64,000 bases of DNA, taken from NCBI GenBank assembly GCA_007376345.1, contig VMGA01000001.1:61747-125746 (forward strand), read 5' to 3'. This DNA comes from Microgenomates group bacterium Gr01-1014_16 (GTDB lineage Bacteria; Patescibacteriota; Microgenomatia; CAZETR01; Amesbacteraceae). Positions 7,582 through 59,530 of the stretch are shown in pieces. How positions within the stretch are numbered: the stretch's first letter is position 1; each line of letters starts with the position of its first letter. The position numbers were made by a program, and so were the translations under genes. The notes below the pieces were generated by a model. The model saw nothing but the letters and a program-made list of their open reading frames with translations, did no database searches and was not told the DNA's origin.

Positions 7582-7614
7582 TTAACCCGATTATACAAAA
7601 TGTCCAGAGTTTTA

Positions 7615-9889: not shown

Positions 9890-9898
9890 AAAAATGTA

Positions 9899-14551: not shown

Positions 14552-14579
14552 ATTTGGATTATATTATAATCGGAGTTGT

Positions 14580-34158: not shown

Positions 34159-34183
34159 GGATTGATTTTATAATACAGCAGAT

Positions 34184-39991: not shown

Positions 39992-40395
39992 AAGTTCCCA
40001 TTTACAATACTAGGTAGTATTGTAATTAAAAATTCTTTTTCTTCAGGGAAATACATGTGGCCGATGGCAAAATCTATTGGGAACCAATCGTAGGTACTGT
40101 CAGATTTCTGATGATTAAAGTTGTGAGATTTCATTAAATACATATGAATATCTTTGACCACTTCTTCGCCCCAATCTTCTGTGGATTTTCTTGTTAAAAA
40201 GCCTAGTTTCTTGACAATTTCCAGATTTTGCAATCCAGTTTCTTCCTTAACTTCTCTCAATGCCGCTTGTTCCAAAGTTTCTCCAGGTTCAACATGACCC
40301 TTAGGAAAGCGTGTTAGATCGCTTTCTGGATAGGTTAATAAAAGAATTTTGTTGTTGTGGATGATGATGCCACCCGCTGATATTGCTTTCTTCAT
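39988..40395 (-). CDS. NUDIX hydrolase.
   Basis: The Nudix box GHVEPGETLEQAALREVKEETGL (GX5EX7REUXEEXGU). Length is 135 aa. Confidence 0.75.
   Translation of the reverse strand: MKKAISAGGIIIHNNKILLLTYPESDLTRFPKGHVEPGETLEQAALREVKEETGLQNLEIVKKLGFLTRKSTEDWGEEVVKDIHMYLMKSHNFNHQKSDSTYDWFPIDFAIGHMYFPEEKEFLITILPSIVNGNL
40002..40025. promoter_or_regulatory. Palindromic element family, copy 1 (type A), reading ttacaatacta-gg-tagtattgtaa, directly upstream of the GT2 start at 39991.
   Basis: A perfect inverted repeat with 11-nt arms and a 2-nt spacer. On the transcribed (minus) strand it reads TTACAA-17nt-TAAATG, a possible -35/-10 pair. It overlaps the 3' end of the NUDIX gene. Confidence 0.5.
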
Positions 40396-40396
40396 G

Positions 40397-41998
40397 TTAG
40401 TTTGAGACTATTTTAAAGGCTGGGGAGCCGGAAGGGAAATAAATGGTTTTGACGATGTTGACGCCAACGGCTGGGATGTCCTCGGGAGCGGCGACTATGA
40501 GAGTCGAATGGATGTCGCGTACTTTTTCCCAGGGACTGGATTCAAAATGGTATTTGCTGAAATCCCTCACTGTTGAAAAGTTGAATTTATCACGGAATGT
40601 CAGCTGGTGGCGGCCTTGAAACAGTTGGGGAGGATACTTGAGATAGAAGAGAAAGAGAATATAAGGCTGGTCGTATTTGTCGGTAACCCAGATTTTGTCG
40701 TACCGACTTTCATTAGATTGAACGTAAGAAACCAGGTCTTCAAACCCGTATTCCCAGGCGGCCGGGTAGGTTTGGGGGTAGTGGACGTAATACTGATGGA
40801 GATATCTGAATGTCTGCCAGGAATACACAATGACCAATCCGCAAATCCCAATGAGTTTCCAATGTTTCAAGAACCAATACATACCGGCGGATATGACAAT
40901 GGTCATGGGGATAACAATATTTTGGGCGCGGAGGGCGTGGGGGGTTTGGAATGTTAATGCTGAAGCCATTGGAGCGATAAATAACCACAACCAGATAATG
41001 CGAGATTTGAAGAATGAATTATGAATAATGAATAATGCACCGAGGGCGAGAAAGATAAAATCAGTCAAGTAGAATAGTCCGGTTTCGGGGACGCGGTTGC
41101 GTTCGATGAGATCGCCGTTAATGAACAAGAAGTTGCCGTCAAAGTGACTGAGATAGTTTTGTATAAACTGAATGGAGTAAATGACCGGTCGATTGTGGAG
41201 AATTCTCGACAGGGGTGAATTCCAATCGACATGCTGACCGCGAAGTTGTTCAACCCGATGCCAGGGTCCTTCGTCGGCCAGAAAACCGACGCCGGAGAAA
41301 CGGGAAACCGAGTCAGTAGTCAGTAGTGAGTAGGCAATAGGCAATAGTAAGAGAGTTGAGATAGAGATAGAGATTAAAAGCTGTTTTGGATATTTAATAA
41401 AAGTTTTGAAGTAGAGAATAAACAGACCCAGGCCAAGGAGGGGGGCGATGACGCGGGTGGACTGGTAGAAATACATTGATAACGAAAAATTCAAGATACA
41501 AGATACAAGATACAGTGATTTTTTAGATTTCAACCATTTGACGAAAAAGACTACGCCGAGCAGGAGAAGGGTGGTGGAAATGTTGACTTCCCAGGCGCCG
41601 CGGGAAAAATGCAAGTGCCATGGTGACGCTGCGAGCAGCATCGCAGTTATCAGTGCACAGTTTTCAGTTATCAGTTCCCTGACTAAAAGATAAACTAAAT
41701 ATACAGCCAAAACACCAAATAAAGCCGACGGAAGGCGGACGGCGAATTCATTGAGTCCGAAGATTTTTACAACCGGAATCAGTAAATAACTATAGCCGGA
41801 GGGTTTGAAGTCACCGAAGGATTCGAGGTTGACCGGTAAGACGTGTCCGTGTTCGTCCTTGCCGGTTAAAAGTAAAGAATAAGCGTTGTAGCCAAGGGCG
41901 GCTTCATCGGCGTTTAAGCCAGCCGGAAAGGAGGATATTTTATAGAGGCGTAAAACGGCAGCTAACACTAAAATGGCGATGAGCAAGTATTTTTTCAT
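40397..41998 (-). CDS. PMT/ArnT-family (COG1807, GT39/GT83-like) GT-C glycosyltransferase, paralog 1 of 5.
   Basis: The N-terminal stretch MKKYLLIAILVLAAVLRLYKISSFPAGLNADEAALGYNAYSLLLTGKDEHGHVLP carries the conserved first-loop DE motif of PMT/ArnT enzymes. About 11 TM helices, then a C-terminal soluble domain. Several internal heptamer repeats. Confidence 0.7.
   Translation of the reverse strand: MKKYLLIAILVLAAVLRLYKISSFPAGLNADEAALGYNAYSLLLTGKDEHGHVLPVNLESFGDFKPSGYSYLLIPVVKIFGLNEFAVRLPSALFGVLAVYLVYLLVRELITENCALITAMLLAASPWHLHFSRGAWEVNISTTLLLLGVVFFVKWLKSKKSLYLVSCILNFSLSMYFYQSTRVIAPLLGLGLFILYFKTFIKYPKQLLISISISTLLLLPIAYSLLTTDSVSRFSGVGFLADEGPWHRVEQLRGQHVDWNSPLSRILHNRPVIYSIQFIQNYLSHFDGNFLFINGDLIERNRVPETGLFYLTDFIFLALGALFIIHNSFFKSRIIWLWLFIAPMASALTFQTPHALRAQNIVIPMTIVISAGMYWFLKHWKLIGICGLVIVYSWQTFRYLHQYYVHYPQTYPAAWEYGFEDLVSYVQSNESRYDKIWVTDKYDQPYILFLFYLKYPPQLFQGRHQLTFRDKFNFSTVRDFSKYHFESSPWEKVRDIHSTLIVAAPEDIPAVGVNIVKTIYFPSGSPAFKIVSN
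41311..41375. repeat. Degenerate heptamer array (agtcagt agtcagt agtgagt aggcaat aggcaat agtaaga) followed by (gagata)x3, inside the PMT-like paralog 1 coding sequence.
   Basis: Read directly. Six consecutive 7-nt units anchored on AG, then a hexamer run. Confidence 0.7.
41492..41515. repeat. Heptanucleotide tandem repeat, (CAAGATA)x3.4, inside the PMT-like paralog 1 coding sequence.
   Basis: caagata caagata caagata cag. It encodes LYLVSCIL on the minus strand. A further imperfect 7-mer run (agttatc-type) lies at about 41641..41675, and an (atgaata)-type run at about 41013..41037. Confidence 0.75.
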
Positions 41999-43548
41999 TT
42001 CAGTCCCACAATCCGTAACGCCGGTAACCCGTTGGGATATTCGATTTCGCCCAGGCGGACCAAGTTGGGAGGATTCATGTCCTGCTGGGGCAGTTCATAC
42101 TGGTCGCCTACAAAAATCGTGGAGGTGTCCCCTCTCTGGGCCGGCCAGTCAACGCGCATAAATGTGTATTTGTCCAGATTTGTAACCTCGCCGACGTCCC
42201 CGACCGGATTATCAGCACGTTGGGAGCGCGTCCAGAAAAAACCCGGGTCTAACCGGTTGTAAAACAGGATGAAAATATACGGCTGGCCCAGGGTATTGGT
42301 AAAAACAACACGTTTAAAACTGTCGACATTGTTGTTTACCAGCTCAATTACACGCTTGTAAGGAGTTAGCCAATATTGGGAAAAATAAAATGGCGAGTGG
42401 ACAAAGTAGAGATCCGAAAAGTAAACTGTAAACAGTAACAGTAACAGGAAAAATGGATACCGGATAAGTTTAAATTTAAATATTTTACTTAAACCCATTC
42501 CTGAAATAATGACTAAAGGAACGATCATGGGGAGGGAGCGGACACCGGAAATAATGTCGCGGGAAAGTGCGGCGGGAATGGGGGCGAGTAGAAGCCATAC
42601 GAGTAAGATCTTAGATGCTGGATTTTTAGATCTTAGAAGATAATATAGACCGATAAGTAAGGTCAGAATTTCCGGATAGTGGAGATAGCCGTAAAAGGGA
42701 GTAGAATGGCGGGGATTTGACCAGTCTCCATCGATGAACAAAAATCTTGGTGAAAAGTGGTTTAAATATCTTTCGATTATTCCTCGTGTTTGGTCTAGAA
42801 ACTCGGAATGAAACAGTTGATAAATGAGGCGATTGTTCTCGTCCTGACGCAGGATTTTGTTAATTTGTCCAGCAGATCGAACATAACTAAAGACGCTGAA
42901 GACTTTGAGACGGCCGGATTGAGAACCAATGCCAACTATAATGGGTAGTAACAGTAACAACAACAGTAAACCGGGGAAAATAATTTTTTTAATGGCAGGT
43001 CTATAAATTACTAACAAACTGATGAGCAACATTGGGGTGAACATTTTTGCTCCCTGATAGGCCCAGAAAGTAAGACACAAAAAAAGTGCAGAAGTTAAAT
43101 ATTTTTTTTTGATAAATAAAACGACAGCCAAGGTGGTGAGAAGTAAATTTAGGTTTGCCTCCCATGCTCCACGACTAAAATGAATTGCCCAGGGATTAAT
43201 GGCTAAAAGAAAAGGCGCAAAAAGATTTCTTGTTAACAGGTAAACGACCGTTATTAATAACGTCCCAAGTATTGCCGAGGGGAGGCGGGTGGCGAATTCG
43301 TTGAGACCAAGAAGTTTGATTACCGGAACCGCGGAATAGATGTATAGGCCGGGTTTGTAATCACCGAAAGATTTGAAAACAATTGGCAAAACTTGGGCGT
43401 GTTCATCCCGGCCGGTTTTAAGAAGTGAGAAGGCATTATACCCAAGCGCCGCTTCATCCCAGGTAAGTCCCAACGGCCTGACATCCAGTTTATATACACG
43501 CAAAACAAAACCTATCAAAACAATCGCTAATAATAATATCTTTTTCAC
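41995..43548 (-). CDS. PMT/ArnT-family GT-C glycosyltransferase, paralog 2 of 5.
   Basis: MKKILLLAIVLIGFVLRVYKLDVRPLGLTWDEAALGYNAFSLLKTGRDEHAQVLP has the same DE-loop architecture. It overlaps the downstream paralog by 4 nt. Confidence 0.7.
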   Translation of the reverse strand: MKKILLLAIVLIGFVLRVYKLDVRPLGLTWDEAALGYNAFSLLKTGRDEHAQVLPIVFKSFGDYKPGLYIYSAVPVIKLLGLNEFATRLPSAILGTLLITVVYLLTRNLFAPFLLAINPWAIHFSRGAWEANLNLLLTTLAVVLFIKKKYLTSALFLCLTFWAYQGAKMFTPMLLISLLVIYRPAIKKIIFPGLLLLLLLLPIIVGIGSQSGRLKVFSVFSYVRSAGQINKILRQDENNRLIYQLFHSEFLDQTRGIIERYLNHFSPRFLFIDGDWSNPRHSTPFYGYLHYPEILTLLIGLYYLLRSKNPASKILLVWLLLAPIPAALSRDIISGVRSLPMIVPLVIISGMGLSKIFKFKLIRYPFFLLLLLFTVYFSDLYFVHSPFYFSQYWLTPYKRVIELVNNNVDSFKRVVFTNTLGQPYIFILFYNRLDPGFFWTRSQRADNPVGDVGEVTNLDKYTFMRVDWPAQRGDTSTIFVGDQYELPQQDMNPPNLVRLGEIEYPNGLPALRIVGLK

Positions 43549-45065
43549 AGTTCTTTAATATAAAACGCAGGTTTGGAGTCGAGGAAGTTGATTTGGGTAA
43601 GTAATGTCCCGGGTGAGGGATTGTCGGGGCTGGAGATGACTAAGTATTTTTGACCGGGGAGCAATGCGGCGATGACAATAGGCATTTCCCAATCATTAAC
43701 AAACTTTATTTTTTCTAATCGGTTAACCCAGTACCAGTCGGCGTGATAATCCCAGCGTTTTGATTTTTGAAAATCGGCCGGGTCCCAAGGCCAATAAAAG
43801 GCGATGAATTCGTGTGGTTCGGCATAGCGTTTGGTAAAAATAATCTCATCGTATTTCGAGTAGTTGTCCATAACATATTTGACCGTTTCTTTGTAGCCGT
43901 ACTGCCAGGACCAGGAGTAGTTTGTTCGGTAATTAAAAGCGACTGGATTTAGATAATAGTCTAAACTTAATAATAAAAGCAGAATAAATATTATTCTTGT
44001 GTTCTTGAGAACTTGAGAACAGCGGTTCAGACCGTAGGCGGTAATAAGAATGACGGCAGGAAGCATTGTAATTGCGCGAAGGGTGTGGGGAGCGTCACGG
44101 GTTAAGCTACCCGCAATTGGAGCGAGTATCAGCCAAAGAAGAATCACTTTGTGTTTAAATATTTTAAGAAACCCTATGTAGAAAAACGGGAGACAAATAA
44201 GATAAAGAAGGCCGAAGCCGGGGATGTTGAACTGGTATTGGGAACCCCCGTTTATAAATAAAAACCGGGGATTAAAGTGATTGAGATAATTGGTTGTGAA
44301 GCGATAGGCCAAATAGGTGGCTTTGTTGTAGACAAAGCGGCCGCCGGGACGTTGACGCAGTTGGTTGATTTGGGCGATGGCTCCCTCGTCCAATAAGGTT
44401 AACCATTTATATCTGGCTTGGCCGGAAGGCGAGAGAAGCTGTATCAGAACCGGAATAAATAGAATAAAGAATAAAGAATAAAGAATAATGTTGGTTTTTG
44501 TGCGATATATTAAAAAATAAGCCACAATAAATAACGGTGCAAAAATACGGAACGAATTATATGTCCAGGCGGAAAGCAAAACATAAATTATTCCCAGCGA
44601 TAATTTGCGATATAGAAGAAGCGTGACGCCAAGAGTGAACAAAAATATCCCCAGGTTGGCTTCGACAGCGACACGGGACAGAAATAAAGACCAGGGGGAA
44701 ATTGCAGCCAAGAGTGCGGATGTTAGCGGCGGAGCGGAAAGTTTCCGGGAAAGCGCGTAAACTAAAAATATTAGAAGGGTTCCGGCCATAATTGAAGGAA
44801 AGCGGACGGATAACGCGTTTAGGCCGAGGACGGCCACGAAAGGAACGTCGGCATAAATATAGCCCGGGAGCTTGAAGTCGCCGAAGGCGCGAAAAATGGC
44901 CGGAAGCACTGTCCCCCACTCGTCCCGGCCGGTTTTAAGAAGCGAATAGGCGTTGTAGCCCAAAGAGACTTCGTCCCAATTCAGGCTGGGGGGGAAATCG
45001 GTAATAAAAGCCGCTCTTAAGGCAAATCCGAATAATATTATGAGGAACAAATATTTAAGATTCAT
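43545..45065 (-). CDS. PMT/ArnT-family GT-C glycosyltransferase, paralog 3 of 5.
   Basis: MNLKYLFLIILFGFALRAAFITDFPPSLNWDEVSLGYNAYSLLKTGRDEWGTVLP. Contains an internal heptamer repeat. Confidence 0.7.
   Translation of the reverse strand: MNLKYLFLIILFGFALRAAFITDFPPSLNWDEVSLGYNAYSLLKTGRDEWGTVLPAIFRAFGDFKLPGYIYADVPFVAVLGLNALSVRFPSIMAGTLLIFLVYALSRKLSAPPLTSALLAAISPWSLFLSRVAVEANLGIFLFTLGVTLLLYRKLSLGIIYVLLSAWTYNSFRIFAPLFIVAYFLIYRTKTNIILYSLFFILFIPVLIQLLSPSGQARYKWLTLLDEGAIAQINQLRQRPGGRFVYNKATYLAYRFTTNYLNHFNPRFLFINGGSQYQFNIPGFGLLYLICLPFFYIGFLKIFKHKVILLWLILAPIAGSLTRDAPHTLRAITMLPAVILITAYGLNRCSQVLKNTRIIFILLLLLSLDYYLNPVAFNYRTNYSWSWQYGYKETVKYVMDNYSKYDEIIFTKRYAEPHEFIAFYWPWDPADFQKSKRWDYHADWYWVNRLEKIKFVNDWEMPIVIAALLPGQKYLVISSPDNPSPGTLLTQINFLDSKPAFYIKEL
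44453..44489. repeat. Heptanucleotide tandem repeat, (GAATAAA)x5 with one 2-nt interruption, inside the PMT-like paralog 3 coding sequence.
   Basis: gaataaa ta gaataaa gaataaa gaataaa gaataat. It encodes IILYSLFFILF on the minus strand. Confidence 0.75.
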
Positions 45066-46572
45066 AGCGCAGCCTAAATAAGATCCAACTGATAACGCCC
45101 AATAAAGTTATTCCTGACGTGATGTTGCCTAGCGTGCGGACAAAAGTATCTTTGAAAATCAGTTCGATAGTATGCTCACCCGGGGTGGTGTTAAGGGTGA
45201 TTAAACCCAATGGTCCACTGGGAAACACAGCAGTTTCTATGCCATCGACAAGGCTGGTCCAGCCCGGAAAGTAAACAATCGGGTATGTGGTTGAACCGTC
45301 CTCATTGCGAACGGGTTGATTAGGAGCAAAGTCTGCAGGTAACTGGGGGGCAGTTTTGGGCCAGTAGTCAGAGAGGGCGGAGGAACGCTGTTCGTCCCAT
45401 AATTTGCCAGAGAAGTATTGATTGTCGTTGAGATTCAACCAGATATCGGGTTTGAAAAAACCGATATTGATTATGATTAGTAGTAAAACGACTGGGATTT
45501 GAATATTTTTGGTAAAGACGGTAATTGCACCAGCTGATAATGATAAAAATAATGTTGACATGGAGAGGAAGCGCCAGGGGAATTGGACAAAGGGCAAGCC
45601 GAGGATGGTTTTCCAAAAAATCTCGGATTTACCGTGAGTTAAGAATAAAGCAATAAAGCCAAGAGCGATAAAAAAAAGTAAAGGGGTTCTTCGGCTGCGC
45701 CTCAGAATGACAACGACAGCAAGAATAATAGCGACTATCCAATGTAAATGTCCGGCGGAGAAACTCATGGTGTCGTTGGGACCCCAGGTGGAGCCGCCGT
45801 AACCCCAGAAATTTGAAATGAATAATTGCCTAAGAGTTGTCCAGTGAAGACTATAGTTATAATAATCGGCGGTGATCTGGTTGAGAGAAACTAACTTGCT
45901 TTCGAAAATTACGGGTAAGAGATAAAAAGATCCCAAAATGAGAGATAGCAATCCGGCTGGGATAAATTTCCAATCGCGACTACGAACAAACCACCAAAAG
46001 CCCAAAAATGGCATAAACATAAATAAGGATAAGTTGTGGGTGATGAGTAGTGCGGCTAAGAGCAAAGAAAATATGATGTATTTCTTTTTTTCGATAGATA
46101 ATAAAATGAGCGGGAAGAAGATAAAGGCCAGGGCTTCGGGCAGGGCTCCCCTCACCCAGACATCGACTGCCCGGTAAGGCGCGTAAACGTAAAACAGGGC
46201 ACTAACAAACGCGCCTTTTTCTCCCCAAAACTGTTTGGATAAAAAATACATTGAGATCCCGGAGAGGACTAATGAGAGGATGAAGACGGATTTGACGCTG
46301 GTCAGAACTGAAAAACCGGAAAGCCGGAATATTGTTCCAAGCCAGTAGGGAAACTGGCCGTAGAAATTAAATAGCGGTTCGCCATAGCCTATACCGGCGT
46401 CGGGGGCCCAACGGCAAGGTAAAACTTTTGCGGCTACGCATTTATCGAATTCAAATTGGCGAAAGACATGAAAATCGTGCATGGTATATATCCCCGGCCG
46501 GAGCATAAGTGCAAATGCCGGAATGATTAGAAGAATTAAGAGGAGGATTTTTTTGGCCATAGTTTTACCCAA
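45055..46572 (-). CDS. YfhO-like polytopic membrane glycosyltransferase (GT-C; the teichoic-acid/glycolipid sugar transferase family).
   Basis: The N-terminal loop MHDFHVFRQFEF...PDAGIGYGEPLFNFYGQFPYW resembles the YfhO DGFHQYVIF...G motif region. About 12 TM helices plus a C-terminal soluble domain. The assignment is tentative. Confidence 0.45.
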   Translation of the reverse strand: MGKTMAKKILLLILLIIPAFALMLRPGIYTMHDFHVFRQFEFDKCVAAKVLPCRWAPDAGIGYGEPLFNFYGQFPYWLGTIFRLSGFSVLTSVKSVFILSLVLSGISMYFLSKQFWGEKGAFVSALFYVYAPYRAVDVWVRGALPEALAFIFFPLILLSIEKKKYIIFSLLLAALLITHNLSLFMFMPFLGFWWFVRSRDWKFIPAGLLSLILGSFYLLPVIFESKLVSLNQITADYYNYSLHWTTLRQLFISNFWGYGGSTWGPNDTMSFSAGHLHWIVAIILAVVVILRRSRRTPLLFFIALGFIALFLTHGKSEIFWKTILGLPFVQFPWRFLSMSTLFLSLSAGAITVFTKNIQIPVVLLLIIINIGFFKPDIWLNLNDNQYFSGKLWDEQRSSALSDYWPKTAPQLPADFAPNQPVRNEDGSTTYPIVYFPGWTSLVDGIETAVFPSGPLGLITLNTTPGEHTIELIFKDTFVRTLGNITSGITLLGVISWILFRLRYES

Positions 46573-47768
46573 GTAAATAAGTTAATAACGCTTAATGTTT
46601 TGGTGAGCAGCGGAGTGTAGAGGGAAATGAAAAAGAGCATGGTGGGGGCGAACCACATATTGTATTGGTTGGCTAAGAAAGTGAAGGATAGAACCACGTA
46701 CTGGACCCAGATTTTGCGGCCGGTGACAAGTAGCCAAGATAGTAGAGGGAAGAGCGGGTACATGTATCGCTCGTGCATGCGGATGGAAAAAAGAAAAAAG
46801 CCAAAATAAACAATGAGCATTTGGTTGACCAGGTTTTGTTCGGATGGATTTTTCCAAATAGATCGAAGACAAACTATAAATAATAATATGACTAGAATAA
46901 TTGAAACTATATTGGCCGGAATGCCCAAAAATAGCGATGTGTCAGGCACCTGATCGATTGGGAAAAAGATGTGCCAGAAATTGAAAGCGTTGACGGTGAT
47001 AAATGGCGATTCGCCCGGTAAAATCCGCTCAAAATATAATCTGGTCAACCAGATAGGGAGATCTAACCGGGGATGGAACGGGGCAAACCAAAGCAGTGAT
47101 GAAATTCCGACGGAGAGGGGAAAGAGCCAGAAGTTTTTGGGGAATTTGCGAATTGCGTATATTAGAAAAACTATGAGGGCAGGAGACCAGGAAGCCTTAG
47201 TGATTAAAGAGGTTCCAAGTAACACGCCAGAAAGAATGAGCCGTTTTTCGAATAGAAAAATCAGGCTCCAAATGGCTAGCGCAGCCACTATACAATCGTT
47301 TTGACCCCAGAGAGAAGAGTTGTACCATAACGGAGGATTTAGTAAGTAAGCCAAGCCAACGATTTTTGATAATTTGGTGAATTTACCGATTCTCAAGATG
47401 GCAAAAAAGAGAGCCAGATCGCCAATGACTGAAGGCAGTTTGAGACTGACCACGTCGCCCCATCTTTGCCACCACCAAACTACAGATGAGGGAAAAAATG
47501 GGATTTTGAGATTTAGTTGCCAGAAGGCTTTATTGCCAAAGTCGTTGAGAAGATATGAAAAAGTGTAAAGATAGACGCTGCCGGCAGGTTGGTTGGGACG
47601 GCTCTGCGGCCAAAAAACGGATCTGGGTAATTCATAAAAATCCACAATACCGTGTTTGACGGCATTGCCAGCCCAGTTCCAGCCATTGTGTAAGTCACCA
47701 TGTTTGGTGTACGTCGTCACCCATAATCTAAAAATTACTAATAGAACTATTAAAATTTTATATTTCAT
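46536..47768 (-). CDS. Polytopic membrane protein, 410 aa, likely GT-C-like. Unknown family.
   Basis: A hydrophobic multi-helix protein with a W-rich extracytoplasmic loop (VVWWWQRWGD). No diagnostic motif. Confidence 0.4.
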   Translation of the reverse strand: MKYKILIVLLVIFRLWVTTYTKHGDLHNGWNWAGNAVKHGIVDFYELPRSVFWPQSRPNQPAGSVYLYTFSYLLNDFGNKAFWQLNLKIPFFPSSVVWWWQRWGDVVSLKLPSVIGDLALFFAILRIGKFTKLSKIVGLAYLLNPPLWYNSSLWGQNDCIVAALAIWSLIFLFEKRLILSGVLLGTSLITKASWSPALIVFLIYAIRKFPKNFWLFPLSVGISSLLWFAPFHPRLDLPIWLTRLYFERILPGESPFITVNAFNFWHIFFPIDQVPDTSLFLGIPANIVSIILVILLFIVCLRSIWKNPSEQNLVNQMLIVYFGFFLFSIRMHERYMYPLFPLLSWLLVTGRKIWVQYVVLSFTFLANQYNMWFAPTMLFFISLYTPLLTKTLSVINLFTWVKLWPKKSSS

Positions 47769-48696
47769 TAGTATGAGATTTCATAAATATTTCAAGTTCT
47801 TTTCTTGTAGGCGATGAACGGCTACCTTGTTTGGTACAAGCTATAGCTCCGGCAGCAGACGCCTTTCTAATTATCGAATGAATAGGCCGATTCAGAGCGA
47901 CCTCGTGAGCAAAATACCCACAGAACGAGTCTCCGGCTCCCGTTTCATCCACTTCGTCCACTGGGAAAGATGAATATGATTTTGTTCCACTATCTGAAGC
48001 TACAACGCATCCATCCCTGCCCAGTGTTATACAGGCTGTTCTTACTCCTCTTTTTTTGAAATAGTTTGTCAACTCATTAGAAGACATTGATTCTGAACCG
48101 GCAATGAACTGGGCCTCCCACATGTTGAGAACTAGGTAGTCAATTAAACTGTAAATTCTATCTGGTAGTTTTTCGGGTGGAGCTGGGTTGTAGATCGTAA
48201 TGACACTATTTTTTTTAGCCAATTCCAGTGCTTGCTCTATTGTTTCTAGTGACACTTCTGAGTTAATGAGCATGACTTGTGAATTTTTTATCTCATTTTC
48301 TCTTGATTTGATATTGTCAAATGATAGACGGATAGTAGAGTTTTTGATTCCGATAAATCCCGGACTTCCTGTGTGGTTGACAATTATTCCAACTAAATCT
48401 GTTGGTACGTTCTTATATCTGAAGATGCCGTCTGGACTGATGCCCTCGCTTGATATTTCTGAAATAATTCTGTCAGCGAACTCATCGGAACCAACAGAAG
48501 CGATTAAGTGAACGAATGCTCCTGAACGAGAAACTGCCGTTGCTTGATTTAGACCTTTACCACCTGGTGCGAGTTTGTAAGTAGTAGCCTGAACCGCCTC
48601 TCCAACTTTCGGCCACTGTTTCACGAAATAAGTCACGTCCATGGTTAGGCCACCGATGACTGTGATAGTTGGTTGAGCGTTTTGTGATGATGTCAT
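47758..48696 (-). CDS. PfkB-family carbohydrate kinase (ribokinase-like). First gene of the long minus-strand operon.
   Basis: ITVIGGLTMDVTYFV...LAPGGKGLNQATAVSRSG...DETGAGDSFCGYFA, the PfkB signature. Confidence 0.75.
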   Translation of the reverse strand: MTSSQNAQPTITVIGGLTMDVTYFVKQWPKVGEAVQATTYKLAPGGKGLNQATAVSRSGAFVHLIASVGSDEFADRIISEISSEGISPDGIFRYKNVPTDLVGIIVNHTGSPGFIGIKNSTIRLSFDNIKSRENEIKNSQVMLINSEVSLETIEQALELAKKNSVITIYNPAPPEKLPDRIYSLIDYLVLNMWEAQFIAGSESMSSNELTNYFKKRGVRTACITLGRDGCVVASDSGTKSYSSFPVDEVDETGAGDSFCGYFAHEVALNRPIHSIIRKASAAGAIACTKQGSRSSPTRKELEIFMKSHTNEI

Positions 48697-48708
48697 AAAT
48701 TATTATTT

Positions 48709-48760
48709 CTAATACTAGGTAGTATTGTAATAATTACCATACTCTGTAGTATGGTAATTA
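48709..48760. promoter_or_regulatory. Palindromic element family, copies 2 (type A, 48709..48731) and 3 (type B, 48731..48760), abutting each other between the PEP-utilising gene stop and the ribokinase start.
   Basis: Type A is ctaatacta-gg-tagtattgtaat. Type B is taattaccatact-ctgt-agtatggtaatta, with 13-nt perfect arms. On the minus strand type A reads TTACAA-17nt-AATAAT followed 5 nt later by the ATG, which is promoter-like. Confidence 0.5.
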
Positions 48761-49078
48761 CAGAACTTGGATTGTTCCTTTAGTACCATTGACTTCAATT
48801 TTAATCCCTGACTTAAGTAACTTGGTCGCATTTGGAACTCCGACGACGGCGGGAATGCCATACTCTCTGGCTACGATTGCAGCGTGGGACAGTTGGCCGC
48901 CTATTTCGGTTACAATCGCTTTAGCAGCCATAAAAATCGGTGTCCAGGCCGGAGATGTTTGTTTTGTAACGAGAATTTCTCCTGATTTAAACGCTTGGAG
49001 GTGATGTTGGTCGATGATGACTCTAGCTACGCCGGTAATCACTCCCACGGATCCTGGAATTCCTTTTATGATAATCAT
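48758..49078 (-). CDS. Stand-alone PEP-utilising-enzyme mobile (phosphohistidine swivel) domain protein.
   Basis: GGQLSHAAIVAREYGIPAVVGV matches the PEP-utilisers signature (TSHAAI..RE.GIP.VVG). 106 aa. Overlaps the upstream gene in an ATGA. Confidence 0.75.
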   Translation of the reverse strand: MIIIKGIPGSVGVITGVARVIIDQHHLQAFKSGEILVTKQTSPAWTPIFMAAKAIVTEIGGQLSHAAIVAREYGIPAVVGVPNATKLLKSGIKIEVNGTKGTIQVL

Positions 49079-50169
49079 GCTTCGATACTAAATTGGGGCT
49101 CTATTAACAATTGTTTGTAATAAGTTTGTTTTCTTTCATTGATAATTTTTTGTAGTGATTCTTTGGAGAATTTGTTACTAACTACTTCTTCCAGTTCTTT
49201 CATAGTTATGTAGAATATATCGTTTTTGTCTTGTGGGAAGTTTGCTTTTAACTTAATTGAAAATAAAATTTTCCTCATAATGCTGTTCCCCTGATAATAA
49301 AATGGGCGGGAATTTCTGATCTGTGAGTAATTTTGAGCTTGATTTAAGATCCATTCAAATAGTCGGATGCGGAATCTTGCGTTTTGTTTCACAAACTTTT
49401 CTCTGTTTATTCTTTTTTCATTAGTTAGCATTAATTTTAGTTTGGGATTGAGAGTTTCCCGATACAATTTTAAATATGAATTCAACAACTCTGTTTCCTC
49501 TCCAAGAGTGGGGTATATCAAGTCTTTGTCTTGAATTCTATATCCGTATTTTTCGATCCATTTTCCAAGCTGTAATTGTTTTTTCTGTTCGTCACTTATT
49601 TGGGCTACTTCCCATAATTGGGTGTCCATATCTATTCCTTTGTCAGGATATCCCAACAGGAGTTCACGATAGTTATTGTTGTCAGAGTCTTTTACAAATA
49701 GTGGATAACTGTATTTAAAGAGAAGTTCGGTGATGCCGCAAACGACTCCCACGTACAGCGACTCTGAAAAAAACCAGCTTTCTAATTCACCTGTCTTTTT
49801 GAAGAGCTCTAACAGTTTTTTTACCGAAAGTTCATTTAAACTTAGTTTGTTTAACTTATTAATTTCTTTCTGATATTCCGGTAAAACTTTGGTTATCCAT
49901 CGTTTGCTGGAAATATCGATTTCGGTCTTAATTCTTTTGGGTAATTGCAGAGTCCCTAATTGTAAAAAAAGTTTCCAGTATTCGTCGCTGAAATAAAGAT
50001 AGCCGTCGATGATTGACCAATATTTATCCGGCAGTTTTAGTCCGAGCCTTTCTGATATTAAACTGCCTGATTTGTTAATCTGAAGAGGAAGAAGAAATGA
50101 TTCTTCCAGAGGAGAAATAGGCTTATGGAGCCATTCAAACTGATTAAAGAATTTTCTTGTCCATCTCAT
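49075..50169 (-). CDS. Hypothetical protein, 364 aa. Probably the N-terminal (nucleotide/substrate-binding) partner of the downstream PEP-utilising swivel domain, i.e. a split phosphotransferase.
   Basis: Translationally coupled to the swivel-domain gene by a 4-nt overlap. K/E-rich, no TM segments. No motif recognised by eye. Confidence 0.4.
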   Translation of the reverse strand: MRWTRKFFNQFEWLHKPISPLEESFLLPLQINKSGSLISERLGLKLPDKYWSIIDGYLYFSDEYWKLFLQLGTLQLPKRIKTEIDISSKRWITKVLPEYQKEINKLNKLSLNELSVKKLLELFKKTGELESWFFSESLYVGVVCGITELLFKYSYPLFVKDSDNNNYRELLLGYPDKGIDMDTQLWEVAQISDEQKKQLQLGKWIEKYGYRIQDKDLIYPTLGEETELLNSYLKLYRETLNPKLKLMLTNEKRINREKFVKQNARFRIRLFEWILNQAQNYSQIRNSRPFYYQGNSIMRKILFSIKLKANFPQDKNDIFYITMKELEEVVSNKFSKESLQKIINERKQTYYKQLLIEPQFSIEA

Positions 50170-50180
50170 AAATTTTTATT

Positions 50181-50204
50181 TCTCATACTCTGTAGTATGG
50201 TAGT
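50181..50204. promoter_or_regulatory. Palindromic element family, copy 4 (type-B-like), 12-15 nt upstream of the start codon at 50169.
   Basis: ctcatact-ctgt-agtatggtag. The downstream flank (agtatgagaaataaaaatttATG) aligns with the flank at the ribokinase start (agtattagaaataataatttATG). Confidence 0.45.
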
Positions 50205-50608
50205 TAAATTGAATTCCATATTTTTGTTAGTTCTTTTTTGGCAGTATTAAATTTAATGCACCATAAATAATAATAGGAAGAAAGATATTTGGCTCTTTTT
50301 TCGATTTCAAATTTTTCTCCGTGTATTTTTCTAACCTTCATTTCTGCTTTGATTGCTGCCAGTTCTTCATTTAGACGAAAAGTGTTCGAACACCAATAAT
50401 TGAGAGGGTATTTAATATTGCCGTATGAACTGGATCTCTTAATATGGGTTATTTCGTGTTCAAGTAGAGAAATTGTTATGGGTTTAGGATTCGGATTTTG
50501 AAAATCTTGATATATATCTCGGCGGAGATATATTTTTCCTAGAAAGGCGGATCCCCGGAACAAATTAAGAGGGCTCATGTGTACTTGTAATCCTTTGTAT
50601 GAATTCAT
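50204..50608 (-). CDS. Small hypothetical protein with an HExxH motif (possible zinc-metallopeptidase-like fold).
   Basis: LLEHEITHIKR contains HEITH. 134 aa. No TM segments. Confidence 0.35.
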   Translation of the reverse strand: MNSYKGLQVHMSPLNLFRGSAFLGKIYLRRDIYQDFQNPNPKPITISLLEHEITHIKRSSSYGNIKYPLNYWCSNTFRLNEELAAIKAEMKVRKIHGEKFEIEKRAKYLSSYYYLWCIKFNTAKKELTKIWNSI

Positions 50609-50609
50609 A

Positions 50610-53677: not shown

Positions 53678-53679
53678 GG

Positions 53680-55488
53680 CTATATTCTATCCTGAACCCA
53701 GCGTTCATGCCAGAAGCTGAAGGCAAAGACCATCCAGAGCGTGCGAAGACGCTTTTTGGCGAACAGTGAATCGACAAATTGAGTGGGGAAATAATCCCGA
53801 ATAGCAGATCGGTAAACATAAGATTTGACCAAATTTGAGAGTGGACCGGAAATCCAGTCCGCCAGGGGTAATCCAAAGCCTTTTTTGGGTCGGCGCCGGA
53901 TGTTTTCAGGTAACTTATCTTTTAATAAGTTACGCAAAGGGAGTTTGGTTTCAAATAACGAAGTGAAACTTTCGTGGCGGGTAAAAGCGTAGGAAATAAT
54001 ATCCCGATCCAGATAAGGCACACGGACTTCCAGGCTGTTGAACATAGATGACCGGTCGGATTTCAAGAGCATGGCGTCGCGCATATAGGTTTGAAAATCG
54101 ATTAACTGGGCGGTTTTGACCGAGTCTGCTGGATAATTGGAAAAAAGCAATTCTTTGATGGGAGATGTTTGGAAAAAATGGGGAGGGGCGAGTTGGCCGG
54201 TGGTGAAATAGACCATCCATTGTAATTGGCGGCGGGTGGGAGAAAGACCCAAGCCGGAAATAAAATTTGCTAAAGTGTCGCCAAATTTGTAGCTAGATGA
54301 AAAAAGAGGCAACTTTATCGGTGGTAAATTGTGGGATAGTGAAGAAAGTTCTCTGGGGACAAACGGCAGATAGTTGGCAAAACGATGGCCTAAATAAGTG
54401 GGATAGCCGGCAAAAATTTCATCTCCGCCGTCGCCGGACAGAGCAACTTTGACGTGCTGACTAGCAAGTTGGTCTACGTGGTAGGTGGGAAAAAGGGACG
54501 GATCGGCAAACGGCTGATCCATAAGTTTTTGAATACGTGGAAAATCTGAAAGAAAGTCGGTGGCAGAGTAGGATTTGTCAAAGTGATGAGTGCCTAAGAT
54601 TTTAGAGACTTGGGCGGCGTGATGACCTTCATTGTAATCGGCATTGGCAAAAGAAATAGAAAAACTCTTGACATCGTGGTTTTGGCGCTTTAAATAATAC
54701 GCTAAGATAGATGAATCCAATCCCCCTGAAAGCAGTAAGCCAACAGGAACATCGGCGATGGCTTGACGAGCAACGACGGTGTCCAGTAATTCATCCAGAT
54801 TATCTGTTCCTGCATACGACTGCGAAAATAAGTCGTAATACTGATGGATTTTTAGACCGGCTTTTGAGAAAGTTAACGTATGGCCAGGGGGAAGCTGATA
54901 AATGTCTTTATAAATAGTTTTTGGGGTAGGGACATAGCCTAGATATGAATATAAGAATAAAGAATCAGGATCGATTTGGGGAGTGGGAATAATAGATAGA
55001 ATTGTTTTTATTTCAGAACCGAATATTATTTTTGAACCGGAGTGATAATAAAATAACGGCTTGATTCCGGCGTGGTCGCGGGCTAGCAGCAGTCTTTGAT
55101 TTTTTTCGTCCCAGAGAGCTAGGGCGAACATGCCGTTTAATTTTTTGAGAAAATCTTTGCCTGAATCTTCATAGAGATGAACTATCGTTTCGGTGTCCGA
55201 TGTTGTTTTTAAGGCGTGGCCTTTTTGATATAGTTGTTCCCGGATGTGTTTGTAGTTGTAAATTTCCCCGTTGAAAATGACAGTTAAAGATCCATCTTCG
55301 TTGCTGATAGGCTGGTCGCCGGTGACCAGATCGATAATTTTCAAACGGCGGATGCCCAGACCGACGTAATTTTTAACAAAATGTCCACCTGAGTCCGGCC
55401 CGCGATGAATAATTTGGTGAGTCATTTTCTCAATCTGAGATACTTTTACTCTAGATCCAAAATCGACAATTCCGGCTATTCCGCACAT
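53680..55488 (-). CDS. Asparagine synthase (glutamine-hydrolysing)-family amidotransferase, AsnB-like. In this context probably a sugar or glycan amidotransferase.
   Basis: N-terminal MCGIAGIV is the class-II glutamine amidotransferase nucleophile Cys. LLSGGLDSS is the PP-loop ATP pyrophosphatase motif. Length is 602 aa. Confidence 0.8.
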   Translation of the reverse strand: MCGIAGIVDFGSRVKVSQIEKMTHQIIHRGPDSGGHFVKNYVGLGIRRLKIIDLVTGDQPISNEDGSLTVIFNGEIYNYKHIREQLYQKGHALKTTSDTETIVHLYEDSGKDFLKKLNGMFALALWDEKNQRLLLARDHAGIKPLFYYHSGSKIIFGSEIKTILSIIPTPQIDPDSLFLYSYLGYVPTPKTIYKDIYQLPPGHTLTFSKAGLKIHQYYDLFSQSYAGTDNLDELLDTVVARQAIADVPVGLLLSGGLDSSILAYYLKRQNHDVKSFSISFANADYNEGHHAAQVSKILGTHHFDKSYSATDFLSDFPRIQKLMDQPFADPSLFPTYHVDQLASQHVKVALSGDGGDEIFAGYPTYLGHRFANYLPFVPRELSSLSHNLPPIKLPLFSSSYKFGDTLANFISGLGLSPTRRQLQWMVYFTTGQLAPPHFFQTSPIKELLFSNYPADSVKTAQLIDFQTYMRDAMLLKSDRSSMFNSLEVRVPYLDRDIISYAFTRHESFTSLFETKLPLRNLLKDKLPENIRRRPKKGFGLPLADWISGPLSNLVKSYVYRSAIRDYFPTQFVDSLFAKKRLRTLWMVFAFSFWHERWVQDRI

Positions 55489-55491
55489 GTT

Positions 55492-56433
55492 TTATAAATT
55501 CTTGACTTCTTTAATTTCGTAAATGGGTTTTTGGCGGGATTCGAAGTAGACGCGAACCATGAGCTCGGACATGAGGCCTAAAAGAATAAACGATACGCCG
55601 ATGAAGACCAGAAACATAGCTATAATAAACATGGGGTTGTTGTGGACATAGATGCCAAGCCAAATTTTACGATAGACAACCTGGGCAAAAGCGGGAACAG
55701 AAAGAGCCAGGGAGACGAGGCCGCCGGTACCGAAAATATAGGCCGGCTTAGTGGAGTAGGAATCCAGAAATTTTGTGGTAATAATATCGATAATGGTTTT
55801 AACTGAACGGGAATAACCATATTTGGATTTACCATGGGCGCGGGGACGGTGGTTGACTGCTATTTCTTTATATTTGGCTCCGCGAAGGACAATGAGCAAA
55901 GAAAGAAGACGGTGATTTTCGCCGTAAAGGCGCATGTTAGCCAGCAAATCCCTACGGACAATACGAATGGAACAACCCAGATCTTTAATTGTGACATGAA
56001 AGATGATCCGGATGAGCCAGTTGGCGATTTTGGAGACGACGACGCGGATCAGATCATCATGTCGGTTTTTGCGCCAGCCAAACACGGCGTCGGTATTGGC
56101 GTCAATCAGATTGAACATCGGTAGCAAGTCAGAGGGAGGATTTTGACCGTCGGCATCAAGAAAGGCGACTAAGTCCCCATGGCTATTATCTATTCCTGCT
56201 GATGTGGCCGCAGTTTGGCCGGTATTTCGCCAGAAACGAATAAGTTTGACGGTAATGTTGGGGTGAGAGGAAGTAGAAATAGAAGAGTTGTCCGTGCTGC
56301 CGTCGTCGATATAGATTACCTCTGTCTGGTCTGATATTTTGGAAAGGGTTTCGCAGAGTTCCGCGTGGAGACGGGGAAGACTTTCGGCTTCGTTTTTGAA
56401 GGGAATAATGACTGAAAGTTTGGGATTGGCCAT
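55492..56433 (-). CDS. GtrB/ArnC/DPM1-like polyprenyl-phosphate sugar synthase (GT2 with two C-terminal TM helices).
   Basis: LSVIIPFKNEAESLPRL...VIYIDDGSTDNS...AFLDADGQNP is the GT2 core. The C-terminus has two hydrophobic helices (AYIFGTGGLVSLALSVPAFAQVVY and FIIAMFLVFIGVSFILLGLMSEL), as in GtrB/ArnC. Confidence 0.7.
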   Translation of the reverse strand: MANPKLSVIIPFKNEAESLPRLHAELCETLSKISDQTEVIYIDDGSTDNSSISTSSHPNITVKLIRFWRNTGQTAATSAGIDNSHGDLVAFLDADGQNPPSDLLPMFNLIDANTDAVFGWRKNRHDDLIRVVVSKIANWLIRIIFHVTIKDLGCSIRIVRRDLLANMRLYGENHRLLSLLIVLRGAKYKEIAVNHRPRAHGKSKYGYSRSVKTIIDIITTKFLDSYSTKPAYIFGTGGLVSLALSVPAFAQVVYRKIWLGIYVHNNPMFIIAMFLVFIGVSFILLGLMSELMVRVYFESRQKPIYEIKEVKNL

Positions 56434-56448
56434 GGCTTTTGATATTAT

Positions 56449-57324
56449 ATGCCTGTGCTGTCGGTTATCATAGTCTCCTATAATACACGGGAAATTACGC
56501 TGGAATGCCTGAAGCGAATCAGGGCCGATGAGATCATCGTTGTGGACAATGCCTCGAGTGATGGGTCGGTGGAGGAGATAAAAAAACGATATAAGGATAT
56601 TAGGATATTACAGAATAAAACTAATGTGGGATTTGCGGCGGCAAATAACCAGGGGATGAAAATTGCAAAGGGAGATAAGATTTTATTGTTAAATTCGGAT
56701 TGTTTTGTAAATACGGATACACTCGATAAGATTCAAGATTCAATGTTCAAGATTCAATCTGATGTAATTGGTTGCAGGTTATTAAATAAAGACGGGTCGG
56801 TGCAGCAATCGTGGGGGTATTTCCCAAGTTTACGAAGAATTACTCTCATGATGCTGTTTATTGATAATTTGCCGATAATTAGAAAGTTTATAGATTCGAT
56901 TCATGTCAGGGATGTGGCCAGATACGAAAAAGAACAAGAGGTGGATTGGGTGACGGGGGCGTTTGTGATGTTCAAGCGTGAAGTTTTTGAGAAGGTTGGG
57001 GGAATTGATGAGAAGTATTTTATGTACGGAGAAGAGATGGAGTGGATGTACCGGATAAAACAGGCCGGATTTAAGGTGTGGTATTCTCCCGTTGGGTCGG
57101 CCACGCATTTGCTGGGTGCCAGTTCGTCAAATCGAGCTCCGGCGGTGGTTGGGGAAATGAGAGGCTGGATTTATTGGTTTTCCAAACACAATCCCGTCTG
57201 GCAGCAAAGATTATTGCCTTATGTAATATTATTTGGCTGTTTGTTACGAATTGTACTTAAGCCTAAGTTATCGAGTTTTTACCGCCAAGCAATTTCTGAA
57301 ATTTTTGCCCCGACCAAGAGATGA
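56449..57324 (+). CDS. GT2-family glycosyltransferase (rhamnosyl/WbbL-like soluble type).
   Basis: LSVIIVSYNTREITLECL...IIVVDNASSDGS...LLLNSDC. Confidence 0.75.
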   Translation: MPVLSVIIVSYNTREITLECLKRIRADEIIVVDNASSDGSVEEIKKRYKDIRILQNKTNVGFAAANNQGMKIAKGDKILLLNSDCFVNTDTLDKIQDSMFKIQSDVIGCRLLNKDGSVQQSWGYFPSLRRITLMMLFIDNLPIIRKFIDSIHVRDVARYEKEQEVDWVTGAFVMFKREVFEKVGGIDEKYFMYGEEMEWMYRIKQAGFKVWYSPVGSATHLLGASSSNRAPAVVGEMRGWIYWFSKHNPVWQQRLLPYVILFGCLLRIVLKPKLSSFYRQAISEIFAPTKR

Positions 57325-58042
57325 GCCACATCAGATAGTGCTTTAGCGGGCCGTTGTACCAGATGCTGGATTGCCATAAGTATTTTTGGGCAAGAGGGGA
57401 TTTTTTTGAACTTTGGCCGTGTTCGTGAATAATTGTGATATTTGGATTGAAGTAGACTTTGAGACCGGTGACGCGGATGCGGAGACAATAATCCAGATCT
57501 TCGTAGTACATAAAGACTTTCTCTGTCATCAAACCAATTTTATTTAGTGTTTGTTTGGGAAAAAACATGCAAGCTCCTGATATCGCATTTACTATTGATG
57601 GCGACGAAGGAGAATATTTCTGTGAAGATTTAAATAGAGACGGTTCGGGGAAGACGGAGCCTTGGGGTGTGCCATCTGGGTCAACAAATTTGGGCCCCAT
57701 GACGCCTATGTCCGAATGGGACTTGGTAAATTCCAGGGCTTTGGTAAAGAAATCTTTGGGGATACGGGCGTCTGGGTTTAGCAGCAAAATATAGTCTCCC
57801 CTGCTCTGGCGCAAACCAATATTAATAGCCTTGGGAAAGCCGATGTTATTAAAATTGGCTACGACTTTGACTCCTGCAAATGATTTGGCAATCTTAACTG
57901 AGTCATCCGTGGAGGCATTATCGATAACAAATACTTCCAGATTCGGATATTTGGCGGCAAACACCGACTCCAGACAGCGCTTTAATGACTGCGCCACATT
58001 CCAGCTGACAATGATTACACTTATTTTCGGTTCCTTGCTCAT
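57263..58042 (-). CDS. GT2-family glycosyltransferase.
   Basis: ISVIIVSWNVAQSLKRCLESV...VFVIDNASTDDS...LLLNPDA. Its 3' end overlaps the convergent GT2 gene by 62 nt. Confidence 0.7.
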   Translation of the reverse strand: MSKEPKISVIIVSWNVAQSLKRCLESVFAAKYPNLEVFVIDNASTDDSVKIAKSFAGVKVVANFNNIGFPKAINIGLRQSRGDYILLLNPDARIPKDFFTKALEFTKSHSDIGVMGPKFVDPDGTPQGSVFPEPSLFKSSQKYSPSSPSIVNAISGACMFFPKQTLNKIGLMTEKVFMYYEDLDYCLRIRVTGLKVYFNPNITIIHEHGQSSKKSPLAQKYLWQSSIWYNGPLKHYLMWLISWSGQKFQKLLGGKNSIT

Positions 58043-58054
58043 GTTTTATTTAAC

Positions 58055-58114
58055 TACCATACTACAGAGTATGGTAAATAATAAATTAATTCTAATACTA
58101 GGTAGTATTGTAAT
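58055..58114. promoter_or_regulatory. Palindromic element family, copies 5 (type B, 58055..58076) and 6 (type A, 58092..58114), between the DedA stop and the GT2 start at 58042.
   Basis: Type B is taccatact-acag-agtatggta. Type A is ctaatacta-gg-tagtattgtaat. On the minus strand type A gives TTACAA-17nt-ATTAAT, promoter-like, with the type-B palindrome sitting between that and the ATG. Confidence 0.5.
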
Positions 58115-59513: not shown

Positions 59514-59530
59514 TGATCCATTATACTTTA

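Follow-up and report, generated by a model that had tools for sequence, protein, structure and literature searches.

Palindromes at gene starts of a Microgenomates cell envelope glycosylation cluster are probable operators of a TrpR-like regulator

We analyzed a stretch of 64 kb from the genome of Microgenomates group bacterium Gr01-1014_16 (referred to here as the window; 64,000 nucleotides in full) that carries six copies of a short palindrome, of two types named A and B, at four gene junctions. The elements are not random, the family to which they belong is conserved across the candidate phyla radiation (CPR; Patescibacteria), and the elements and the gene of a small TrpR-like protein are reciprocally linked. 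We consider it probable that the six palindromes are DNA operators of a homodimeric TrpR-family (YerC/YecD-like) helix-turn-helix (HTH) regulator, G01um101416_688, which is encoded in the same metagenome-assembled genome (MAG). Physical binding, repression as opposed to activation, the positions of the promoters, and the effector are what we infer from sequence.

The core ATACT-N4-AGTAT has six matches in the window (0.02 expected), and all of them are at the four junctions. The 22-mer TACMATACTNNNNAGTATKGTA, that is, TAC[A/C]ATACT-N4-AGTAT[T/G]GTA, returned the same six copies when up to three mismatches were allowed (0.11 expected), and the exact half-site TAC[A/C]ATACT (TACMATACT) occurs nine times against an expectation of 0.72, each time within one of the six copies. 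There is no further copy in the window outside the four junctions, and none was found in the 6.5 kb past its right end. An earlier note on this DNA had placed six copies at four sites, with types A and B differing at 4 of 18 core positions and with near-identical flanks at two sites. All six copies were found again, the difference between the types holds, and the common flank is real: AGTAT[T/G]AGAAATAA[T/A]AATTTATG is shared by sites 2 and 3. The copies are the following, with distances given to the start codons of minus-strand genes:

Site 1, 40002..40025: type A, full, TTACAATACT-AGGT-AGTATTGTAA; within the last NUDIX codons, 11 nt to the GT2 ATG (39991).
Site 2A, 48708..48731: type A, degenerate in the gene-proximal outer arm, sense TTACAATACT-ACCT-AGTATTAGAA; 11 nt to the PfkB-kinase ATG (48696).
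Site 2B, 48731..48760: type B, TAATTACCATACT-CTGT-AGTATGGTAATTA, with 13-nt arms free of mismatches; the TAA stop codon of the PEP-utilizers gene is part of the outer arm.
Site 3, 50181..50204: type B, degenerate in the gene-proximal outer arm; 1 nt past the stop codon of a 124-aa gene, 11 nt to the ATG at 50169.
Site 4B, 58055..58076: type B, full arms of 9 nt, with the loop in the opposite orientation to that at sites 2 and 3; 12 nt to the GT2 ATG (58042).
Site 4A, 58091..58114: type A, one arm degenerate; abuts the TAA stop codon of the VTT/DedA-domain gene (58114-58740).

Three of the six are full palindromes (40003-40024, type A; 48735-48756 and 58055-58076, type B), and the arms reach 13 nt at 48731-48760 (site 2B). 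The other three are degenerate (48708-48729 and 58091-58112, type A; 50181-50202, type B): one arm is full, 5 to 6 nt of the other are retained, and all share a two-base deviation, with TCT in place of TAC on the plus strand at the outer end of the gene-proximal arm. The dyad is 22 bp long, or 26 bp when the conserved AC/GT flanks are counted, and the six palindromes rank among the longest perfect hairpins of the window.

The position of the elements relative to genes is nearly constant. On the minus strand, the copy nearest to the gene lies 11, 11, 11, and 12 nt from the ATG at 39991, 48696, 50169, and 58042, respectively. The neighboring genes are all on the minus strand and almost gapless, with an intergenic share of about 0.7% of the window as tiled by longest open reading frames (ORFs). 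Of the five largest intergenic gaps, three are those of sites 2, 3, and 4; they contain little beyond the elements and have the same layout of stop codon, element(s), 11 to 12 nt, and ATG. The earlier claim that every copy stands 5' of a minus-strand gene start holds at all four genes, but site 1 is not intergenic; it lies inside the coding end of the NUDIX ORF (39988-40395), which has ATGA in common with the start of the GT2 gene. The palindrome can be coding, and here it contributes to the NUDIX C terminus, ITILPSIV (39988-40025).

What ties these elements to a regulator is the gene that accompanies them in other genomes. At six loci, two copies stand about 500 to 600 nt apart, and the gene between them matches the Pfam family Trp_repressor in 6/6 cases (E values of 1e-9 to 1e-20). 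The product is a TrpR-family HTH protein of the YerC/YecD type with 135 to 190 aa. Four of these proteins were compared with the NCBIfam YerC/YecD model TIGR02531, for which the cutoff is 42.2 bits; all four matched it, three scored 56.5, 43.8, and 61.8 bits, and the fourth, from locus L089, fell below with 24.0 bits. By tblastn, the regulator gene is right beside the palindrome in 19 motif-selected loci among the matches listed. The reciprocal test used six TrpR-like proteins as queries, which gave 80 metagenomic loci, 67 of them non-redundant, with windows from the same loci as controls. An exact core is present within 100 nt upstream of the regulator ATG in 44 of the 67 loci and in 0 of 506 controls; when up to two mismatches are allowed, the numbers are 55/67 and 28/506. 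In addition, an exact core lies just past the stop codon of the regulator gene in 23 of 63 loci.

The operator type follows the protein. The recognition helix KVS[YF]GTIARV goes together with type A upstream of the gene (3/3) and VG[FY]STIARVATWL with type B (3/3), and other clades have their own operator variants. The palindrome also sits where an operator would be expected to act: in many lineages it is found between a TTGACA-like -35 sequence and the ATG, TTGAC occurs 13 to 20 nt upstream of the core at 11 of 29 ATG-proximal sites (3.6% of random 32-mers), and the right arm contains a -10-like TATKGT, TAGTAT, or TATGAT that lies 7 to 8 nt before the ATG.

By tblastn, there is no TrpR-like gene in the 64-kb window itself. 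The earlier note had thought of a co-occurring HTH regulator elsewhere in the genome, and one was found in the same MAG, with both element types at its own gene. This protein, TSC86342.1 (G01um101416_688) of Microgenomates group bacterium Gr01-1014_16, has 186 aa and carries Pfam PF01371 on its record. It is assigned to the same MAG as the window protein P0121, and the 364-aa protein of the window is G01um101416_112 of that MAG at NCBI. The regulator gene is on contig k139_349099 of ERZ27284378, an assembly of groundwater DNA that also contains the contig of the window as k139_12380; run SRR8863434 yielded an assembly of the locus as well. At the regulator locus (L256), a type B element, CTACCATACT-CTGT-AGTATGATAG, stops 7 nt short of the ATG and provides TATGAT, a good -10 sequence, in its right arm; a type A element, TTACAATACT-AGGT-AGTATTGAAA, is located at +462, inside the 3' part of the coding sequence (10401-10424). 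A related Amesbacteria genome has the swapped order, with A upstream and B internal, and other close relatives have A/A or B/B. In these close relatives the copies are always at -25 and +462, and in the Amesbacteria-like clade the internal copy is always at +462 and the two operators are a constant 487 bp apart. Hence, types A and B, both tied to one regulator gene, seem interchangeable. The coding copy near the C terminus of the regulator reads I(T/I)TIL(Q/G)S(M/I) (L083:6133-6154; L256:10401-10424).

The regulator gene has a conserved neighborhood in genomes of the Microgenomates type, which comprises gyrB, the gene of an H+-pyrophosphatase, the trpR-like gene, in some cases a NUDIX gene, and gyrA (L121-L124, L128, L142, L160, L201-L210, L212, and L256). 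The start of gyrA is often just past the downstream operator, and gyrA may be a conserved target.

Structural comparison indicates that the regulator is a protein of the TrpR fold, as far as models and profiles can tell. The family profile matches the YerC-type structures 3frw, 3kor, and 3g1c in the PDB with E values of 1e-18 to 1e-20; its match to E. coli TrpR is weak. An AlphaFold (AF2) model of a close homolog, with a predicted local distance difference test score (pLDDT) of 79, aligns with 3frw over about 95 residues with a template modeling (TM) score of 0.83 to 0.87 and with E. coli TrpR, including the operator complexes 1tro and 1trr, with a TM score of about 0.7. The C-terminal region of about 80 aa is modeled as helical with lower confidence, contains a conserved KRRYPxYFWPxLLLE motif, and has no match in the PDB. 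At an E value of up to 1e-30, the full-length family comprises 107 representatives of clusters with 50% identity.

TrpR and HisR (YerC of B. subtilis) bind 20-bp palindromes with a lineage-specific consensus and are frequently autoregulated (PMC9413887). E. coli TrpR, which acts at the trpEDCBA, aroH, and trpR operators, belongs to the same Pfam family, PF01371, and the CPR regulator is predicted to share its fold. Like the proposed pair, it is a dimeric HTH repressor with a palindromic operator rich in TAC/ACT...AGT/GTA and with autoregulation of its own gene, features that for our pair are predicted from the DNA; its operator overlaps the core promoter, which may also hold for the sites here. 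E. coli TrpR differs in that its GNACT half-sites are 8 bp apart (TGTACTNGTNNACNAGTACA), whereas the half-sites here are ATACT/AGTAT, 4 bp apart, with outer TAC/GTA. In addition, the CPR protein has the extra helical C-terminal region of about 80 aa, its gene lies between two operators, and its putative targets are glycosyltransferase and sugar kinase genes instead of trp genes. The closest sequence family is HisR (YerC/YecD), which is found in Firmicutes and other phyla and likewise has lineage-specific palindromic operators of about 20 bp, with an operator in front of its own gene in about half of the genomes (PMC9413887). Its motif, cacTTTA-N6-TAAAgtg (PMC9413887), is not ATACT-N4-AGTAT. 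HisR has neither the C-terminal extension nor a second operator inside or after the 3' end of its gene, and its regulon comprises histidine biosynthesis and transport, while there are no his genes at the sites in the window.

Does the TrpR-like protein itself recognize the palindrome? The binder could be a different regulator, or RNA polymerase with a sigma factor that uses NATACT/AGTATN as a -10 sequence on both strands, the TrpR-like gene being simply the best-conserved target. The arms do contain -10-like hexamers, and the link to the regulator is solely one of co-occurrence. Moreover, two TrpR-like paralogs are present in at least one CPR genome (L212), which makes the identity of the binder uncertain. 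We nevertheless regard another binder as very unlikely. The usual promoter of this genome is a plain TATAAT sequence with no dyad symmetry, a dyad of 22 to 26 bp suits a dimeric HTH protein, and the operator variants track the recognition helix of the TrpR-like protein. Autoregulation, moreover, is the rule in the TrpR/HisR family (PMC9413887). In the genome with two paralogs, GCA_964366085.1, the genes are 6 kb apart around gyrA (6001-6564 and 12120-12564); the second encodes the short, 149-aa type, and the perfect palindrome behind it is a different one, ACTTAAATGATATATATCATTTAAGT.

A motif-first scan with the pattern TACNATACTNNNNAGTATNGTA, made with one genome per species, showed how far the palindrome family extends. 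It returned at least 125 matches in at least 118 stretches (taxon labels are as given in the records, and genes in the fetched loci are longest ORFs). Among the matches listed, the two free positions are complementary in 88 of 125 (25% expected), and 70 of 125 have a palindrome that continues outward for 2 bp or more (6% expected). Both properties are combined in 58 of the matches listed, and 50 of these 58 are intergenic. The MAGs of 39 of the 58 are named as CPR lineages from many classes (Parcubacteria groups, Microgenomates groups, Saccharibacteria, Gracilibacteria, Berkelbacteria, and Doudnabacteria), and several further members of the 58 have CPR-type genes. Two extra positions per side are conserved (AC...GT), which gives the 26-bp dyad, and the central 4 nt are palindromic in 33 of the 70 extended copies listed (1/16 expected). 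In the commonest CPR variant the arms contain -10-like TATACT/TATAGT. The same pattern had 35 matches in 2.9 million viral contigs, none of them both extended and complementary, and all in coding sequences.

Some loci have very long perfect palindromes around the same core (L163, with arms of up to about 31 nt, flanking 5001-5507; L005, L110, L070, and L120), and in these lineages the "variable" flanks are common to the copies upstream and downstream of the regulator gene. CPR-type palindromes also occur in MAGs labeled Gammaproteobacteria or Micavibrio (L006, L045, L073, L074, and L087), and two of these (L006 and L073) have in addition a CPR-type TrpR-like gene whose product is 48 to 60% identical to Woesebacteria/Amesbacteria proteins, which suggests that such MAGs are mislabeled or chimeric bins.

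Short intergenic palindromes in several copies bring to mind selfish repeats, similar to repetitive extragenic palindromic (REP) sequences and bacterial interspersed mosaic elements (BIMEs) or to miniature inverted-repeat transposable elements (MITEs), which would have been spread by a transposase and would lie at junctions incidentally. REP sequences flank the gene of a Y1 transposase, the REP-associated tyrosine transposase (RAYT), and reach tens to hundreds of copies; MITEs are 50 to 500 bp long, with terminal inverted repeats and a target-site duplication. The small gene between two copies resembles the arrangement of REPtrons (REP plus RAYT), which also have short palindromes at junctions; the near-identical 45-nt module in sites 2, 3, and L215 might have arisen by copying; and the regulator gene has a Y1_Tnp gene at a distance of 2.3 kb. 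These likenesses do not go far. The bracketed gene encodes an HTH regulator with no transposase domain, and the copy number is low, with 4 strict elements in the 284 kb of related loci that lie away from the regulator. The elements have 22 to 30 bp, are palindromic throughout, and lack target-site duplications or direct-repeat flanks. While REPtron palindromes are species specific, the core is conserved superphylum-wide, across CPR classes and with the regulator syntenic near gyrA/gyrB, which points to vertical inheritance. On either side of the Y1_Tnp gene (IS200/RAYT type; L256:6880-7690) stands a palindrome of another sequence, TTCCACCTT(T)AAAGGTGGAA, of which the window has 0 copies. An origin as selfish repeats, which the earlier note had kept as an alternative, is thus extremely unlikely, and MITEs are ruled out by the size of 22 to 30 bp and the lack of a target-site duplication. 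We also dropped a DNA-uptake sequence, given the low copy number and the linkage to the regulator, and the LexA/SOS and NrdR boxes, for a mismatch in sequence and gene context.

How could operators at the four sites act? A Shine-Dalgarno-like sequence precedes only 4 of the 61 genes in the window, and about 15 operon-first genes have TATAAT 3 to 10 nt 5' of the start codon with no recognizable -35 sequence. In this genome, therefore, mRNAs appear to be leaderless as a rule. The four genes preceded by a palindrome are without TATAAT; they have weak candidate -10 sequences or, as an alternative, TATKRK in the right arm, 12 to 13 nt 5' of the ATG:

TATAAT close to a start codon (examples): 7582-7600, 9890-9910, 12631-12650, 14552-14570, 34159-34183, 56434-56448, and 59514-59530.
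Weak candidate -10 sequences, each 5 nt 5' of the ATG: AATAAT at 48702..48707 (minus strand), AATAAA at 50175-50180, and TTAAAT at 58048-58053.

The earlier note had proposed a promoter with TTACAA as the -35 sequence in the left arm, a spacer of 17 nt, and a -10 hexamer past the right arm. The spacing is right at sites 2 and 4, and the arrangement is compatible with the leaderless geometry at sites 2 to 4; site 1 had been miscounted, the spacer to TAAATG having 15 nt. A generic promoter and terminator scan gave counts at or under the shuffle expectation and called none of the palindromes a terminator.

Because the operators lie 11 to 12 nt from the ATG in a genome of the leaderless type, a bound dimer would cover the core promoter or -10 sequence and the start region of four transcription units, all on the minus strand:

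Putative target 1, 39215..39991, minus strand: a GT2 glycosyltransferase gene, with GT4 and Mannosyl_trans2 genes behind it.
Putative target 2, 39988..48696, minus strand: a tightly overlapping run headed by a PfkB kinase gene (47758-48696).
Putative target 3, 48758..50169, minus strand: genes of a 364-aa protein without a Pfam family and a 106-aa PEP-utilizers mobile-domain protein.
Putative target 4, 57263..58042, minus strand: a GT2 glycosyltransferase gene.

The run of target 2 also contains the genes of an Alg6/8-like protein, four membrane proteins of about 500 aa (one with a PMT_2 match), and the NUDIX protein. We hypothesize that these four units of a cell envelope glycosylation and sugar kinase cluster would be repressed together, probably in response to a small-molecule co-repressor, and that the regulator would control its own gene via the type B element 7 nt before its ATG and the type A element inside the 3' end of its coding sequence. 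Types A and B would then be two accepted variants of one operator. The cluster would be a main target of the regulator, since it has 6 copies in 18 kb, whereas the related loci have 4 in 284 kb outside the regulator region.

The surrounding DNA, 37105-63938, is one minus-strand cell envelope glycosylation cluster. It encodes at least seven membrane proteins of about 500 aa (four with PMT_2/PMT matches), at least five GT2 proteins, a GT4 protein, an Alg6/8-like protein, Mannosyl_trans2, an asparagine synthase, and a DedA/VTT protein. The pair of 364-aa and 106-aa genes (48758-50169; L215-L219) is conserved and, in distant relatives, lies beside genes of a PPDK_N protein and G6PD/6PGD; the pair looks like a split PEP-utilizing enzyme. 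A second PfkB-family sugar kinase ORF (340-1359; 339 aa; RfaE-like by eye) has no palindrome 5' of it.

Several observations weigh against the interpretation as operators. The four sites in the window have no convincing -35 sequence and their -10-like hexamers are weak, and site 1, inside a coding region, may be without any promoter. Conservation of the target genes does not reach more distant relatives. In a close relative, with 76% identity in the 364-aa protein, the B plus A tandem of site 2 and the AGAAATAAGAATTTATG flank are retained, but a different gene stands behind them and site 3 is absent; more distant orthologs have no sites. Apart from the regulator, none of the gene families beside the sites is strongly recurrent, with a few GT4, PfkB, nucleotidyl-transferase, and large membrane protein genes. 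The pattern TACNATACTNNNNAGTATNGTA fixes 16 positions, so its matches cannot show variability there. Among the 58 matches listed that are extended and complementary, 13 sit between convergent genes, where a promoter is not expected. Finally, a dimeric protein requires neither a complementary variable position (A..T versus C..G within one genome) nor variable complementary outward extensions, with arms of up to 31 nt (L163), and both hint at an extra selection for a hairpin.

The latter points raise the question of whether the elements function at the RNA level, as hairpins of the minus-strand transcripts that serve as terminators, 3' stabilizers, processing sites, or 5' leaders and set apart or adjust the units of a single long polycistronic message, with the link to the TrpR-like gene being secondary. 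The folding energy of full copies is -11 to -19 kcal/mol (z score of about -3), sites 2B, 3, and 4A begin at or right after stop codons, and variable complementary flanks often lengthen the palindrome in other CPR genomes. Among the matches listed, the mean extension reaches its maximum of 6.8 bp between convergent genes and is 3.8 bp between divergent genes, and 13 of 50 have an A or T run at the base of the stem. Intrinsic terminators have a G+C-rich stem followed by a U tract. In some CPR lineages the lengthened palindromes between convergent genes, with A/T runs alongside, are similar to bidirectional terminators of this kind; unlike these, the inner 22 to 26 bp are conserved in sequence and form an AT-rich stem. 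In the window, three of the six copies are 6-bp stems only and barely fold, and the region of site 3 reaches -5.2 kcal/mol with a z score of -0.15. None of the six copies has a U tract or a terminator-like call, the terminator-like sites of the region are below the shuffle expectation, and the whole window gave 0 matches to Rfam at the gathering threshold and none in a tRNA scan. In 84 regulator-linked elements, the raw counts of mismatches on the sense strand were 43 for G.T+T.G and 32 for A.C+C.A, with 40 T.T. The frequently palindromic central 4 nt are a trait of a DNA dyad, the orientation of the loop is not constant relative to the gene, and a hairpin leaves the link to an HTH protein and the co-variation with its recognition helix unexplained. 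We therefore find it quite unlikely that RNA hairpins account for the elements, although a second, hairpin-level role may exist in some CPR genomes. The leader hairpin offered by the earlier note is weak, as half of the copies fold to 6-bp stems and there is no clear excess of sense-strand wobble pairs (43 versus 32).

A combination of both roles is also conceivable, if fairly unlikely: a two-level element of gene boundaries, specific to CPR bacteria, with a core that the TrpR-like protein reads on DNA and that selection also maintains as a hairpin, of RNA or of a single strand. In genomes with hardly any intergenic DNA, the pair of protein and palindrome would then serve to insulate or terminate transcription units and not simply to occlude promoters. 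We raise this possibility because of the complementarity within a genome, the arms of 12 to 31 nt, the copies between convergent genes, and the regulator gene, which two copies always bracket about 490 to 600 bp apart. For the window we favor operators of the TrpR-like regulator: the linked TrpR-family gene, in the same MAG as well as in dozens of other CPR genomes, lends strong support to the shared cis-regulatory module, or operator site for a dimeric regulator, that the earlier note had proposed.

Searches of open-access full texts turned up no paper that connects TrpR or YerC with CPR lineages or reports this palindrome or such an operator-regulator pair. Hence, a variant of the TrpR/HisR-type repressor-operator system with operators that bracket the regulator gene is apparently undescribed for CPR bacteria. 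The CPR accounts for a large share of bacterial diversity, almost all of it uncultured, and very few regulators are known.

In summary, the source of the DNA is an uncultured groundwater bacterium that, like most of its CPR relatives, encodes the TrpR-like regulator, and the probable protein-palindrome pair is a first handle on gene switching in CPR bacteria. A regulator that spans classes, together with a recognizable operator of 22 to 26 bp, makes regulons predictable from thousands of MAGs, and the pair allows a cheap in vitro test with one small protein and one short DNA. The elements also illustrate how regulation can be packed into less than 1% of intergenic DNA, with operators that abut stop codons, lie 11 nt from putatively leaderless starts, and even reside in the 3' ends of coding sequences. 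If our interpretation is true, a metabolite signal would be tied to genes for cell surface glycosylation and sugar kinases, which are plausible players in an episymbiotic lifestyle.

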